Source: Saccharolobus solfataricus
GTDB lineage: Archaea; Thermoproteota; Thermoprotei_A; Sulfolobales; Sulfolobaceae
NCBI RefSeq assembly: GCF_900079115.1
Contig: NZ_LT549890.1
Span: forward strand, 2,670,001 to 2,702,000
Reading direction: 5' to 3'
Length of the DNA stretch: 32,000 bases
Below are positions 9,266-15,577 of this stretch, one piece after another. Position numbers and translations under genes: made by a program. Each line of letters opens with the position of its first letter. The first letter of the stretch is position 1. The notes under the pieces were generated by a model. That model was not told where the DNA came from. It saw nothing but the letters and a program-made list of their open reading frames with translations, and did not search any database.

Positions 9266-9279
9266 TTTTGGGTCTACCG

Positions 9280-11555: not shown

Positions 11556-11575
11556 GTAATCTACTCTGCCCTAAC

Positions 11576-11875
11576 CGGTAGATCCAAAATCTCTCCCTTA
11601 AAAATAAATCTGTAGTATTATTAAGCGTTTTTTATTTTAATAGAATTATCTTCCACTATTAATGTTATGGATAAAATAATGGGTGAAAGTCTTCCCTCTC
11701 CACATCCTTGAATATTGTGAAGAGGCACTACATGCCTCGCCTCTAACAAACCTACTGGGACAGCGAGTCCAGCGCGTCGCCTACGTCAATGTCCTTGAGG
11801 TCGACATTCTTGCCCTTGGGGATCCGGAGACGCTTCTTCGCGGGGCCCTTGTAGACTGTAACACATTTGCATAAC
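11576..11875 (-). mobile_element. diverged, truncated right-end remnant of an ISC1225-related IS
   Basis: CGGTAGATCCAAAATCTCTCCCTTAAAAATAAATCTGTAGTATTATTAAGCG compared with the reverse-complemented ISC1225 right end CGGTAGACCCAAAATCACCTCCATAAAAATAAATCTATAGTATTAATAAGTG. The minus-strand frame gives LFTIFKDVEREDFHPLF, resembling LYTVFKNVMTREEFRLLL. The frames are broken by stops. Confidence 0.7.
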
Positions 11876-12143
11876 TTTTAAATACTTTTAATCATTTCAC
11901 AATATGATCTTTATTATGATTATGTTTATATATTATTTCCTCTACATTATAAATTGATGAACTCCATACTGATGACGGGCTATGCTCACGAGGTATTGGG
12001 GGCGACAAATACGGATGGGAAGGTAGTGGTGTTTCCCTCGACTAGCCCCAATGAGTTGAGGGTGAGTGTGTATGAGCCCTCAAGAGGGGTGCCCCGTGGC
12101 GGAATTAGAAGTGGTTAAAAGTAAGCAGAAGTTACGCCACGGG
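11876..12143 (+). mobile_element. GC-rich structured island X: truncated IS200/IS605-type right-end remnant (tnpB tail plus terminal hairpin), homologous to island Y
   Basis: Collinear blocks shared with Y. Nested helices ATTGGGGGC (11995..12003) / GCCCCAAT (12045..12052), GAGGGT/GCCCTC, and CCCGTGGCG (12093..12101) / CGCCACGGG (12135..12143). It abuts the break point of vapC. Family assignment is an inference. Confidence 0.4.
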
Positions 12144-12260
12144 TAAACACTCCGTAGCCTTCTCTTTCATCTCAGATATTTTCTCTTCTACAGATTTCTT
12201 AGGTTTTAAAATTGCGTAAACAAATACGTTATAATCTATAAATCTTACGCTTGAGCTCAT
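12132..12260 (-). pseudogene. vapC: PIN-domain toxin (VapC) fragment, first ~40 codons only
   Basis: MSSSVRFIDYNVFVYAILKPKKSVEEKISEMKEKATECL, then it reads into island X and stops. It overlaps the 3' end of the upstream AbrB-type gene, as in vapBC operons. Confidence 0.6.
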
Positions 12261-12453
12261 GCCAGTCATCCGGCAATTCATCAACTTCTACACTATCTAT
12301 TAGTTTTGATACATTAGAGACCTTAGGATAAATTTCGATTCTATCATCCTTTAAAACCATAATAAGGTCTTCCGTATCGAATCCGGCTCTCCACTCTTTT
12401 GGTATAACAATTCTTCTCTGATCATCAACTTTCTTTATTACCACTTTTTCCAT
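12229..12453 (-). CDS. vapB: AbrB/SpoVT-fold antitoxin (VapB-like)
   Basis: 74 aa with ATG start. N-terminal swapped-hairpin motif VDDQRRIVIPKEWR. The cognate PIN gene downstream is truncated. Confidence 0.7.
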   Translation of the reverse strand: MEKVVIKKVDDQRRIVIPKEWRAGFDTEDLIMVLKDDRIEIYPKVSNVSKLIDSVEVDELPDDWHELKRKIYRL

Positions 12454-12623
12454 TTTCTTGCTAATTAATTATCGAATTATCATCATATAAGCTTTACGCC
12501 AAATATAAGGGAAGAGCGAATTACGTTAGTATTTTCGAAAAGTTCTAAGACTAGGATTTAACAGCGAATCCTTGGAAGCTATAAACTTTCTGAAGGCATT
12601 AGTGAAGGAAGATTATTATAATA

Positions 12624-12933
12624 GACGGGGGTTCAAAGGGGGCGGAAAACTTCGCCTCTTTGAGACGGAGATGGATAGCCCCCTTTGTAGAAATATTTAA
12701 AAACACTGACTATGAAATATTTTTGATGACAGTTACTGATGGGGCAAGCGTCACCGAGACACCTTGGTTAAAGCGAGGGTCTATGAGGTACGCCTCTGCT
12801 CCAGACAGTGATGGCACAGACGTTAAGTACCATGCGGGGTGGGAGCCACCCTTAGTGCCTGTGGAGCTCTGCCCTCTACCAGTACTTCGGTACTGGCATG
12901 GTAGAGCTGTGAAGCAGGAAGCTCCCTCCTTTA
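12624..12933 (+). mobile_element. GC-rich structured island Y: non-autonomous IS200/IS605-type remnant (putative left-end hairpin, tnpB C-terminal tail, omega-RNA-like scaffold); continues at 15392
   Basis: 9-bp helix 12635..12643 / 12678..12686. UNCG hairpins GAGG-TACG-CCTC (12785..12796) and CCAGTAC-TTCG-GTACTGG (12879..12896). The frame ...[27 protein letters not shown] closes as ...RRG* only across the IS tandem. Confidence 0.45.
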
Positions 12934-14158
12934 CGGTAGACCCAAAATCATTTTACAAAAAATAATTTTGGTTGGGTAATATCAGATTCTGAAAAATAAT
13001 AGAATTTATAGCTTTGACAAGAACGCAACTAATTGAAGATAGATTTAAGGTGAGGAACCCGGTATTATCACGTGGTGAAGACAAGGTGATAACACCTGGT
13101 CTTCCCCACCAAAATAATATACAACAAGTAGGGTATAAATTACTTTCCATGTTGAGCTTCAAGGGAAGAAAGGCTGAGGAGGTATCGAGAGTTCTGGTCT
13201 CCGCGTGCTTGTGGAACGACTCCGTGGAAAGCAAGTCCAAAGGGTATAACGTGTCACCACAGACCGTGAGGAACTACGTGGAGGAGCAGGGAACTGAGGT
13301 GATCGAGAAGCTATTAGAGTCCATGAGGAGGATTTCCATGGAGATACTCAAGGGAGTGAAGGAAGTCGACATCTCCATAGACTGGACAACCAAGACGTGG
13401 TATGGTAAGCCGGTGGAGGGACTGGGTAGTTCAGCCAAGGGGAACTCGTGGAACTACGCTACCGCGACCACGAAGTATCAGAATATGGTGCTCCTCCTAG
13501 CTTTCGTTCCCCAAGTTAACGGGATGAGCAAGGATGAGATCGTGAAGCTCCTCATGGAGCAAATTGTGGGAATGGGCCTCAAGGTGGGGCTCGTAACCTT
13601 GGACGCGGGATTCTACACCGTGGAAGTCCTCAAGTTCATATCGCAGTTCAAGTTCGTGATAGGAGTCCCTGTGGGGGACGTGAAGATCTACGAGGAGTTC
13701 GACGGAGAGTACACGACAAACAGTAAGAGGCATAAGAAGGAAGAGCAGGTCAAGTTCAGACTCCTGGTGTATGGTAAGGAAATCGTTAAGAAGAGGAAGA
13801 AGACCGTGGTGTACTTCGCGAGGGCGACCAACCTCGACCTACCCAAGAGGGAAGTGCTGAAGTTGTACAACAAGGTTAGGAGTCCCATTGAGACGTCTTA
13901 CAGGAACATCAAGGCCTTCCTTCCCTTCACGAGCTCCACCAAGTTCATCTTCCGCGAGTTGATCTTCGTGCTGGCCATGATCTTCTACTCGCTTTACACC
14001 GTGTTTAAGAACGTCATGACAAGAGAGGAGTTTAGATTGCTGCTCATCCTCTGCTTTCTAGACGATTTATCTGATCTAAAGGATTTTATATTTAATCTTG
14101 AGGAAACACTTATTAATACTATAGATTTATTTTTATGGAGGTGATTTTGGGTCTACCG
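12934..14158 (+). mobile_element. 1225-bp IS (ISC1225-type), copy B
   Basis: Exactly 1225 bp with 17-bp terminal IRs CGGTAGACCCAAAATCA. TTTA on both sides (12930..12933 and 14159..14162). Confidence 0.92.
13014..14144 (+). CDS. IS4-superfamily DDE transposase (copy B)
   Basis: ISIDWT, VTLDAGFY, and LYNKVRSPIETSYRNIK (Y-R-E-K signature). The TTG start exists only in this copy, so the true start is uncertain. Confidence 0.8.
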   Translation: MTRTQLIEDRFKVRNPVLSRGEDKVITPGLPHQNNIQQVGYKLLSMLSFKGRKAEEVSRVLVSACLWNDSVESKSKGYNVSPQTVRNYVEEQGTEVIEKLLESMRRISMEILKGVKEVDISIDWTTKTWYGKPVEGLGSSAKGNSWNYATATTKYQNMVLLLAFVPQVNGMSKDEIVKLLMEQIVGMGLKVGLVTLDAGFYTVEVLKFISQFKFVIGVPVGDVKIYEEFDGEYTTNSKRHKKEEQVKFRLLVYGKEIVKKRKKTVVYFARATNLDLPKREVLKLYNKVRSPIETSYRNIKAFLPFTSSTKFIFRELIFVLAMIFYSLYTVFKNVMTREEFRLLLILCFLDDLSDLKDFIFNLEETLINTIDLFLWR

Positions 14159-14179
14159 TTTACGGTAGACCCAAAATCA
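14142..14179. repeat. abutted IS ends: 17-bp / 4-nt spacer / 17-bp palindrome at the tandem junction
   Basis: TGATTTTGGGTCTACCG-TTTA-CGGTAGACCCAAAATCA read directly. This is the right IR of copy B, the shared target duplication, and the left IR of copy C. Confidence 0.95.
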
Positions 14180-15387
14180 TTTTACAAAAAATAATTTTGG
14201 TTGGGTAATATCAGATTCTGAAAAATAATAGAATTTATAGCTTTAACAAGAACGCAACTAATTGAAGAAAGATTTAAGGTGAGGAAGCCGGTATTATCAC
14301 GTGGTGAAGACAAGGTGATAACACCTGGTCTTCCCCACCAAAATAATATACAACAAGTAGGGTATAAATTACTTTCCATGTTGAGCTTCAAGGGAAGAAA
14401 GGCTGAGGAGGTATCGAGAGTTCTGGTCTCCGCGTGCTTGTGGAACGACTCCGTGGAAAGCAAGTCCAAAGGGTATAACGTGTCACCACAGACCGTGAGG
14501 AACTACGTGGAGGAGCAGGGAACTGAGGTGATCGAGAAGCTATTAGAGTCCATGAGGAGGATTTCCATGGAGATACTCAAGGGAGTGAAGGAAGTCGACA
14601 TCTCCATAGACTGGACAACCAAGACGTGGTATGGTAAGCCGGTGGAGGGACTGGGTAGTTCAGCCAAGGGGAACTCGTGGAACTACGCTACCGCGACCAC
14701 GAAGTATCAGAATATGGTGCTCCTCCTAGCTTTCGTTCCCCAAGTTAACGGGATGAGCAAGGATGAGATCGTGAAGCTTCTCATGGAGCAAATTGTGGGA
14801 ATGGGCCTCAAGGTGGGGCTCGTAACCTTGGACGCGGGATTCTACACCGTGGAAGTCCTCAAGTTCATATCGCAGTTCAAGTTCGTGATAGGAGTCCCTG
14901 TGGGGGACGTGAAGATCTACGAGGAGTTCGACGGAGAGTACACGACAAACAGTAAGAGGTATAAGAAGGAAGAGCAGGTCAAGTTCAGACTCCTGGTGTA
15001 TGGTAAGGAAATCGTTAAGAAGAGGAAGAAGACCGTGGTGTACTTCGCGAGGGCGACCAACCTCGACCTACCCAAGAGGGAAGTGCTGAAGTTGTACAAC
15101 AAGGTTAGGAGTCCCATTGAGACGTCTTACAGGAACATCAAGGCCTTCCTTCCCTTCACGAGCTCCACCAAGTTCATCTTCCGCGAGTTGATCTTCGTGC
15201 TGGCCATGATCTTCTACTCGCTTTACACCGTGTTTAAGAACGTCATGACAAGAGAGGAGTTTAGATTGCTGCTCATCCTCTGCTTTCTAGACGATTTATC
15301 TGATCTAAAGGATTTTATATTTAATCTTGAGGAAACACTTATTAATACTATAGATTTATTTTTATGGAGGTGATTTTGGGTCTACCG
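14163..15387 (+). mobile_element. 1225-bp IS (ISC1225-type), copy C
   Basis: Exactly 1225 bp with the same IRs. TTTA at 14159..14162 and 15388..15391. Confidence 0.92.
14279..15373 (+). CDS. IS4-superfamily DDE transposase (copy C)
   Basis: 364 aa from GTG. Differs from copy B by H->Y (14960) and one synonymous change (14779). Confidence 0.8.
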   Translation: MRKPVLSRGEDKVITPGLPHQNNIQQVGYKLLSMLSFKGRKAEEVSRVLVSACLWNDSVESKSKGYNVSPQTVRNYVEEQGTEVIEKLLESMRRISMEILKGVKEVDISIDWTTKTWYGKPVEGLGSSAKGNSWNYATATTKYQNMVLLLAFVPQVNGMSKDEIVKLLMEQIVGMGLKVGLVTLDAGFYTVEVLKFISQFKFVIGVPVGDVKIYEEFDGEYTTNSKRYKKEEQVKFRLLVYGKEIVKKRKKTVVYFARATNLDLPKREVLKLYNKVRSPIETSYRNIKAFLPFTSSTKFIFRELIFVLAMIFYSLYTVFKNVMTREEFRLLLILCFLDDLSDLKDFIFNLEETLINTIDLFLWR

Positions 15388-15391
15388 TTTA

Positions 15392-15410
15392 GGAGGGGGT
15401 AGCTCACATT
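15392..15410 (+). mobile_element. distal piece of island Y (3' arm of the terminal hairpin plus the tnpB-tail stop codon)
   Basis: GGAGGGGG pairs with CTCCCTCC (12922..12929) across the TTTA loop. TAG at 15399..15401 closes the reconstructed frame. The outer boundary is not determined. Confidence 0.4.
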
Positions 15411-15577
15411 ATATACATGAAGGTTAAAGAAGATTAAGTATTAACTTTACTTACAAGTCGCCCAACAGATAGCTAAACACTTCTATGAAGTTGAAGAGAA
15501 GGATTTTTTGATAGATTAGTACTTTTCCCAATTTAAGGGCTCAATAATGTTATAAACTTACTTAACAGAATGTAACT

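Follow-up and report, generated by a model that had tools for sequence, protein, structure and literature searches.

A protein-less derivative of ISC1316 from an omega-RNA-like transposon family and an unrelated IS607-family remnant in the Saccharolobus solfataricus chromosome

Insertion sequences (IS) of the IS200/IS605 family are moved by the Y1 transposase TnpA, which recognises subterminal hairpins. The RNA of the associated protein TnpB comprises the 3' end of tnpB and the right end of the element, the adjoining flank acts as guide, and the emptied site is cut next to the target motif. Recently, protein-less elements related to tnpB-bearing IS (PATEs) have been described, which 'often encode omega-RNAs' needing TnpB in trans (Meers et al. 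2023, bioRxiv 10.1101/2023.03.14.532601). Repeats resembling MITEs (transposable elements of the miniature inverted-repeat type), with a short open reading frame (ORF) representing the downstream end of OrfB, were reported in Acidianus hospitalis W1 by You et al. 2011 (PMC3119797), who also noted them in multiple copies in 'some Sulfolobus' genomes. The Sulfolobus elements SMN1 (S. islandicus REN1H1; Berkner & Lipps 2007) and SMN2 are described as ~320 bp long, without inverted repeats and with small ORFs, their movement being ascribed to an IS200/IS605 transposase (Erdmann et al. 2013, PMC3839810). TnpBs of Sulfolobus are RNA-guided, and in TnpB7 of S. islandicus the guide starts directly after a conserved UUCAC (PMC11043419). 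In this study, we report the analysis of two islands, X and Y, located in an IS-dense region within 32,000 nucleotides of the Saccharolobus solfataricus chromosome (contig NZ_LT549890.1, positions 2,670,001 to 2,702,000, forward strand; this whole stretch is referred to as the window, and positions are counted from its first letter). The concept involved, that of MITE-like OrfB-3'-end elements and omega-RNA-bearing PATEs, is already known. We consider it likely that X and Y are unrelated non-autonomous deletion derivatives of TnpB-type transposons, Y being an inactive copy of an omega-RNA-like family and X a decayed remnant.

The two islands were originally predicted, from the sequence alone, to be homologous right ends of IS200/IS605 elements that lack TnpB and carry an omega-RNA-like scaffold. 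The predicted richness in guanine plus cytosine (G+C) was confirmed, both islands having a G+C content of 0.44-0.46 as compared with 0.31-0.36 in the flanks, and the true boundaries were placed at 11853..12150 for X and at 12620..12933 plus 15392..15407 for Y. The assignment to IS200/IS605 right ends holds for Y, which carries that of ISC1316, and had to be given up for X, which derives from the IS607 family.

Judged by its sequence, Y (330 bp) derives from an IS200/IS605 element of the ISC1316 type and encodes no protein. When the two IS copies that interrupt it and one TTTA were excised, its reading frame ended in ...EAPSFRRG followed by a stop, as claimed, with the stop codon TAG at 15400..15402, one base further than the predicted 15399..15401. 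In a protein search this rebuilt ORF matched, with 71% identity, the C-terminal part of the S. solfataricus P2 protein named 'second ORF in transposon ISC1316' (PF07282), and the DNA was 89% identical to ISC1316, identifying the PVE...EAPSFRRG tail as the 3' end of an IS200/IS605 tnpB, as had been proposed. The same search returned small unannotated ORFs of Saccharolobus, Metallosphaera and hot-spring metagenomes, and no S. islandicus proteins were among its matches; a Pfam search with the rebuilt ORF gave no family. Only the last ~37 codons of tnpB remain in Y, and no RuvC or zinc-finger coding part is present, in agreement with the prediction.

Alignment with the right end of ISC1316, which had been suggested as a check, was performed using a copy from P2 (L001). 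Positions 12833..12933 plus 15392..15407 matched the last 111 nt of ISC1316 (L001:4258-4368) with 89% identity over 117 nt (E = 1e-40), and positions 12616..12703 matched its left end (L001:3054-3127) with 81% identity over 88 nt. The 9-bp hairpin upstream (12635..12643 / 12678..12686, + strand), suspected of being a left end, is thus the left end of ISC1316. The 129 nt between the two matches had no counterpart in ISC1316 (L001). Y and ISC1316 have the same terminus, ...GGGGGTAGCTCAC, and ISC1316 in L001 is preceded by TTAT, as is Y (12616..12619, + strand), where the flanks of the family copies also point to this tetranucleotide as the target or transposon-adjacent motif. The tail of Y also matched the tnpB 3' ends of the Acidianus two-tailed virus (ATV), of pNOB8 and of pHGQ25 (a plasmid of S. 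tengchongensis).

The left end of Y (12620..12703, + strand) contains a nested hairpin, with the 9-bp hairpin as its outer stem, which is kept in the family; the inner hairpin resembles the terminal hairpin of the right end. A full-length relative, L079, encodes an intact TnpB of 410 aa (L079:6179-7411; guided_TnpB, 261 bits, cutoff 100), and its left end is identical to that of the miniature elements up to ...TCTCTTAATG, after which its tnpB ORF starts. The miniature elements therefore keep the tnpB promoter region and start codon. The junction in Y-family elements falls exactly at the tnpB ATG, and the loss spans from there to the last ~37 codons. In Y, the retained promoter region (12696..12728, + strand) includes a TATA-like box, TTTAAAAA (12696-12703), and the former tnpB ATG (12726-12728); in the family consensus, the box TTTAAATA lies 31 nt upstream of the ATG, the spacing being 30-31 nt overall. 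Given the spacing established for TATA boxes of Sulfolobus, 12696..12728 would represent the promoter and predicted start of the RNA.

Y is one copy among many. The motif in the middle of Y was found at 88 loci (84 metagenome loci and 4 loci of M. yellowstonensis), from which 71 distinct full copies of one compact architecture, differing in their flanks, were extracted. The scan of reference genomes returned only the four loci of M. yellowstonensis and did not return S. solfataricus, though P2 and CP033235 carry the motif. No copy of the motif was found in IMG/VR viral contigs, and blastn of Y against phage records matched only tnpB tails and one left end. Counted from the motif, the left-end hairpin stands ~80 nt upstream and the terminus ...AG(C/U)UCAC, with which all copies end, ~190-210 nt downstream, and flanks diverge directly outside both ends. 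A TTAT-like motif (TTAT, CTAT or TTTAY) was present just 5' of the left end in 37 of the 41 copies examined; three of the remaining four read TTAC, and the flanks were otherwise unrelated. As read from these sequences, insertion is in the IS200/IS605 mode, without inverted repeats or duplication and with a short motif 5' of the left end. The predicted MITE-like nature of the islands applies to Y, which belongs to a multi-copy family with helices supported by covariation; of X, no further copies were found in narrow searches of the protein database, phage and plasmid records and viral contigs.

The ORF at 12660..12965 is identical to SSO2887 of Saccharolobus solfataricus P2 (protein search), the strain to which the window was assigned. 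Small ORFs annotated on different Y-family copies use different frames (one reads GVGATLSACGA), and because the same nucleotides are read in different frames, conservation is at the nucleotide and not the protein level. SSO2887 and the 'hypothetical proteins' related to it (P0002-P0015; 70-126 aa), some of which extend into inserted IS, are readings of the miniature element and not genes. Separately, a Y-family copy was observed on a plasmid-like metagenome contig with ParB/ParA-type neighbours (L005/L017), where ~60 nt after the right end (AGTCCTTCGTAATATCCCATATGAGCTTGTTAGAAGGATTTTACAAAACGAAC...) recur just upstream, into an atypical left end, which suggests a tandem or nested arrangement.

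The rebuilt 225-nt RNA of Y folded with -100.7 kcal/mol (z = -4.1 compared with shuffled versions). An alignment of 54 Y-family copies with <96% mutual identity (A1) gave a consensus of 57 pairs in 10 helices. Of the cells in A1, 98.6% were paired, as compared with 38-49% in controls in which the partners were slid by 1-3 columns; 14 pairs showed changes on both sides as against 1-6 in the slid controls, and 0/500 shuffles reached the observed values. The proposed covariation check over the copies was thus borne out for the Y family; among relatives of X only 2/36 pairs covaried. G-U made up 15.6% of the cells of A1, and the complementary strand would pair in only 83.7%; because of this share of G-U, the fold belongs to the + strand (tnpB sense), as expected of RNA.

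All helices named in the prediction for Y were found in the sequence at their coordinates on the + strand, and some are pairings conserved in the family. GGGUGG-GAG-CCACCC (12837..12851) is part of helix H3 (GGGGUGG-GAG-CCACCCU, 12836..12852, + strand), where the tnpB homology begins and where a compensatory change was seen in 12 sequences (in 11 from G-C to C-G, in 1 to U-G). CCAGUAC-UUCG-GUACUGG (12879..12896) is the variable apical hairpin of helix H4 (12858..12918, + strand), which is closed by CCUGU...GCAGG; two pairs of H4 have 10 compensatory changes each, and the apical hairpin varies or is deleted among copies. The terminal hairpin, CUCCCUCC-UUUA-GGAGGGGG (+ strand), corresponds to H5 (12921..12929 with 15392..15400), 5/8 pairs of which show compensatory changes in the family. 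The 5' arm of H5 and its TTTA loop (12921..12933) form the IS insertion site, and its 3' arm GGAGGGGGU and the right-end terminus AGCUCAC occupy 15392..15407, within which lies the stop of the former tnpB. The pairings GAGG-UACG-CCUC (12785..12796) and GGCAC/GUGCC (12813..12817 / 12855..12859) are not conserved; the former mostly reads GUGG-UACG-CCUC in the family, and the stretch pairs instead with the upstream GCGUCACC. Helices H3-H5 are common to the full-length tnpB 3' ends (L001, L057, L079, L098 and L099 were aligned), and their compensatory variants are also seen in these. A block TTGATGA..TACTGATG, pointed out in the prediction, is not conserved in the Y family, the consensus being TTAATGGCAGTCACTGACGG. 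UGAUGA...CUGA blocks were considered as C/D-box or K-turn motifs, and this idea was dropped since they are not conserved in the family.

The place of the tnpB ORF is taken in the Y family by a middle hairpin, an irregular stem-loop of 62 nt (12741..12802, + strand; columns 17-78 of A1), which is nearly invariant and more conserved than the TnpB-derived tail. It has an internal loop of GA opposite NNUGW. Its pairs are kept in 97.8-100% of cases; where the stems vary, the exchange is mostly C<->U facing a G, and there is also variation on the 3' side of an internal loop. The hairpin was absent from the full-length relatives examined (L001 and other tnpB 3' ends); it had no match in Rfam, and the other five reading frames gave no match to it in the protein database. 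A search of the whole window against Rfam at the gathering score was also negative, and permissive thresholds applied to 11600..13000 and to an intact family copy (L002) gave chance-level matches only.

The copy of Y in the window is interrupted by two tandem 1225-bp IS of the ISH3 family (12934-14158 and 14163-15387, + strand), each followed by TTTA (14159-14162 and 15388-15391). They form a direct repeat with 1229-nt spacing and 99% identity, have the terminal inverted repeats CGGTAGACCCAAAATC, and encode a transposase matching NF033541 (ISH3 family; 312 bits, cutoff 225) and the Pfam families DUF4322 and DDE_Tnp_1. The insertion block (12934..15391) splits the loop of the terminal hairpin H5, leaving a scaffold that is not intact, and the copy is inactive because 2.46 kb of IS DNA separate the scaffold from the last 16 nt and the guide. 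The flank AUUAUAUACAUGAAGGUUAA (15408..15427, + strand) would act as guide were the RNA intact, by analogy with TnpB7 of S. islandicus.

The ISH3-family IS, which makes a 4-bp duplication, sits twice in tandem in the 4-nt TTTA loop of the terminal hairpin of Y (12930..15391). In Metallosphaera yellowstonensis (L012:2985..3000), a further family copy (CCCCGTCC GTTA|CGGTAGACCC) carries a related IS in opposite orientation at the identical place in the loop. That one loop was hit twice independently suggests that the IS prefers the hairpin loop, or YTTA in a stem-loop context. An isolated end fragment of the same ISH3-family IS (~66 nt, 83-85% identical, inverted) was found at 11565..11630, and another partial copy ends at 9279.

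Comparison with the described systems places the Y family close to several of them. It is like PATEs in being protein-less, in keeping both ends of a tnpB-bearing IS200/IS605 element and in its presumed mobilisation by TnpA in trans, and differs in being archaeal (Sulfolobales) and of the ISC1316 lineage, in its extra invariant hairpin of 62 nt and in the precise retention of the tnpB promoter and ATG. With the MITE-like repeats of A. hospitalis (PMC3119797), to which it was likened by description, it shares the occurrence in Sulfolobales, a conserved terminus and a C-terminal remnant of OrfB (TnpB); that report predates omega-RNAs and proposed no RNA role. ISC1316 of P2, a tnpB-only type, is like Y in its left end (81%), its tnpB 3' and right end (89%), the TTAT flank and the terminus ...GGGGGTAGCTCAC, whereas in Y the whole tnpB ORF from the ATG to the last ~37 codons is missing and the unrelated middle hairpin stands in its place. 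By their description, SMN1 and SMN2 resemble Y in size, lack of inverted repeats, small ORFs and a presumed IS200/IS605 transposase. SMV1, reported to carry SMN2, would be expected among the phage records, where Y had no match beyond tnpB tails and one left end; from this and from the lack of S. islandicus proteins among the matches of the Y ORF, Y probably belongs to a different family from SMN1/SMN2. The omega-RNAs (or reRNAs) of S. islandicus SisTnpB1 and TnpB7 consist of the tnpB 3' end and right end, with hairpins near the 3' end and ...UUCAC before the guide. The putative Y-family RNA has a similar origin and the terminus ...GCUCAC or ...GUUCAC; the former come from elements with tnpA and tnpB and the motif TTTAA, while the lineage of Y is tnpB-only and uses TTAY.

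Island X is best read, on sequence grounds, as a lone, decayed derivative that arose by deletion from an IS607-family element encoding a divergent TnpB-related protein, and is probably not functional. A six-frame query of X returned the C-termini of 'TnpB-related' proteins of 438-441 aa from Sulfurisphaera and metagenomes (...VDGRVVVFPSTSPNELRVTVYEPSRGVPVVELEVIKSKDKLRHG). The parents of X are IS607-family elements, because these genes lie downstream of a serine-recombinase tnpA; L013, L101 and L103 carry a Resolvase+HTH_17 tnpA together with the TnpB-related gene. Element X (298 bp, 11853..12150, + strand) matches the full-length Sulfurisphaera and metagenome elements L013, L101, L102 and L103 at its ends, and its flanks diverge exactly at 11853 and after 12150. 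The left end (AGACTGTAACA...AACTTTTAAATACTTTT...; 11853..11907, + strand) was 80% identical to L013:858-903, just upstream of the serine-recombinase tnpA. An internal fragment of the tnpB-related gene (11969..11993, + strand; codons ...LMTGYAHE) was 88% identical to L013:2566-2590, its 25 nt corresponding to ...NPYLMTGTAHEG of P0016-P0019, and the 3' end (12013..12150, + strand), comprising ~134 nt of the tnpB-related gene and the right end, was 93% identical to L013:2694-2834. The right end finishes ...GGGTAAACAC in all 5 sequences, and an imperfect terminal inverted repeat of 30 nt (I7) occupies 11869-11898 / 12108-12137. X has neither the tnpA nor ~90% of the tnpB-related gene; an internal deletion of 103 nt is filled by 19 unrelated nt, and a 1-nt insertion in the 3' part shifts the frame, with a stop TAA at 12144..12146. 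X thus matches parts of Sulfurisphaera IS607-family elements (serine-recombinase TnpA plus a TnpB-related protein of 438-441 aa, TIGR01766 / PF27234) at 80-93%, and differs from them in these losses, the frameshift, the unrelated filler and its single copy. The ORF of X gave no family in Pfam.

The parental protein of X scored below the guided_TnpB cutoff (50 bits as against 100) and has no zinc-finger cysteines; from its sequence it is TnpB-related only, its RNA-guided activity being putative. In P0016-P0019 (L013:1501..2826, L101, L102 and L103), SEAYTSSINPFNG was observed where the zinc-finger motif ...TS.TC..CG... is expected, and VVGKFS at the place of an expected conserved acidic residue; these TnpB relatives, still accompanied by a serine recombinase, may have an impaired nuclease.

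To the left of X, 11745..11852 (minus strand) codes for the C-terminal ~35 residues of an IS110-family transposase; they are 73% identical to the end of P0020 (...VYKGPAKKSLRIPKGKNVDLKDIDVGDVLDSLSQ). This stretch is G+C-rich and is followed by a hairpin GAGGCA-CUACA-UGCCUC (11722..11738); a similar hairpin with compensatory changes, GAAGCA-UUACA-UGCUUC, was noted just upstream of ISC1316 at L001:2993..3009. To the right (12151..12453, minus strand) are vapB (12229..12453; MazE/AbrB-type, Pfam E = 1e-6) and then a vapC-like ORF, which ends after ~45 residues where X begins and whose remainder is not on the other side of X. A simple insertion of X into vapC was considered and dropped, as the left flank is an IS110-family fragment and the vapC frame is not continued.

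The Y-family element would most likely be transcribed from the retained promoter into a scaffold of ~235 nt running into the 3' flank, and this RNA would act as omega-RNA for an ISC1316-type TnpB made elsewhere. Charged with it, TnpB would cut the emptied site (TTAY plus flank), and the element would be restored. Movement would be by Y1 TnpA supplied in trans, which fits the TTAY site at the 5' side and the lack of inverted repeats. We infer such a supply of omega-RNA in trans from the family's sequences, its RNA being derived from the tnpB 3' end and right end, lying on the sense strand, ending at the transposon boundary and having a covarying structure. Intact ISC1316-like TnpB is encoded on the same contigs as Y-family copies at L057, L067 and L079. 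Both tail subtypes occur in full-length and miniature elements alike, which fits, and does not prove, a pressure to stay recognisable. A bolder proposal, put forward only tentatively, is that the Y family is a hyperparasitic RNA-only transposon that moves with a hijacked TnpA and is homed and retained by a hijacked ISC1316-type TnpB, with the invariant 62-nt hairpin as a new functional RNA module; if so, this module might be an L7Ae/K-turn-like stabiliser, might replace the 5' half of the omega-RNA that is embedded in the ORF, or might enable the miniature element to out-compete its parents for TnpB. Several observations tell against the interpretation of the islands favoured here. Few copies were seen in S. 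solfataricus (Y, and the intact copies in 98/2, its counterpart, and at SULI_11180, CP033235 ~1,964,250-1,964,610), and in the ISC1316 copy retrieved from P2 (L001:3153..4363) tnpB is frameshifted into ORFs of 287 aa and 120 aa, so that this copy is probably a pseudogene. Part of the Y-family conservation could be at the DNA level, because H3-H5 overlap parental coding sequence and H5 may be a hairpin recognised by TnpA. Full-length elements lack the middle hairpin; the Y-family RNA is therefore not simply a shortened omega-RNA and might have another use. X is known from one copy only, and in the common fold predicted for the 3' ends of 5 close relatives only 2/36 pairs covary.

The alternatives differ in what they would make of the same structures. 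Were the Y family a plain miniature element mobilised by TnpA, its helices would be single-stranded DNA structures or hitch-hikers for transposition, and no guide RNA would be made; the likeness of its left-end inner and right-end terminal hairpins, as in the TnpA substrates of IS608-type elements, and its insertion after TTAY speak for this. We regard it as unlikely, however, since TnpA requires no more than the subterminal hairpins in those IS200/IS605 elements that have been characterised, whereas the Y family conserves ~190 nt more (middle hairpin, H3 and H4), the changes in which are compensatory and preserve G-U on a single strand; moreover, the tnpB promoter and start site are kept precisely, and the 3' terminus ...UCAC matches the motif next to the guide in the RNA of a Sulfolobus TnpB that has been tested. 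Exaptation of the Y-family RNA for a use other than transposon homing, for instance as a small regulatory RNA, as a decoy or competitor of TnpB or as guide of a nuclease-dead relative of TnpB, with the middle hairpin as functional module, appears highly improbable, and so does the variant in which it encodes a small protein (the annotated ORFs of 70-114 aa). Although this hairpin is absent from the parents and outdoes the TnpB-derived tail in conservation, and ORFs from the retained ATG are annotated in several genomes, the copies are scattered with unrelated flanks, which makes their 'guides' random, as in ordinary transposon omega-RNAs; the frames differ downstream of the variable region and match no protein family, and substitutions in the middle part keep pairing and not coding sense (R/W, A/V and M/V changes).

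For X, the retention of both ends, the 93% identity of its last 138 nt to full-length elements and the consistent fold predicted for it would suit a working nuclease-less carrier of omega-RNA, served in trans by IS607-type TnpB-related proteins. Against this stand the 103-nt deletion with 19 unrelated nt, the 1-nt insertion, the low guided_TnpB score and missing cysteines of the parental protein, and flanks that are gene fragments (the 3' end of an IS110-family transposase and a truncated vapC). No other X-type miniatures were found in narrow searches of the protein database, phage/plasmid records and viral contigs, so that in these collections X was not seen as a multi-copy family (a true MITE), and no homologous full-length element was seen in the window. 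That X works in this manner thus seems quite improbable. Hardly any credence is given to the view with which the analysis began, in which a single family of TnpB-less IS200/IS605 right ends, sharing an omega-RNA scaffold, has X and Y as its collinear homologous members. They are alike in parts (left end, tnpB-like 3' end, right end), the three short blocks said to be common to both do exist in collinear order, with TTGATGA-N4/6-TACTGATG occurring only at 11954 and 12723 in the window, and their parental proteins show a weak similarity ...RD..A.LNL...P.EL... (E = 0.55). Homology of X with Y was nevertheless not detected: blastn of X against Y (word 7, E up to 10) gave no match, X matched neither Y nor ISC1316 in blastn, MAFFT produced no meaningful alignment of the two, and an nhmmer profile of the 54 Y-family members (--max, E up to 10) matched Y and ISC1316 and not X or its parent L013. 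The ends of X match a serine-recombinase IS607-family element and those of Y match ISC1316, i.e. the parental elements differ. As for the blocks, TTGATGA..TACTGATG belongs to the lineage of Y only, not to the Y-family consensus, and stems in X from the codons NPYLMTG, while the GTTAAAAGTA block of X lies inside its 30-nt IS607-type terminal inverted repeat.

For the window itself the result is modest, consisting of one dead member of a described class and one unrelated decayed remnant. Added here are the anatomy of one widespread family of the Sulfolobales, its TTAY motif, the retention of promoter and ATG, a fold backed by covariation and an invariant hairpin. As regards annotation, neither SSO2887 nor any of its many relatives listed as 'hypothetical protein' is a gene. 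The remaining value lies in the conserved hairpin and in an experimentally tractable element consisting only of guide RNA. Should the RNA of the Y family prove to be made and to serve TnpB in trans, the family would be a well-populated archaeal guide-RNA-only transposon with >70 distinct copies; it would also offer an experiment of nature on what an omega-RNA requires when coding no longer constrains it. The hairpin in the place of the ORF could reveal what stabilises such RNAs at 80 °C, or by what means miniature elements compete with the parental ones.

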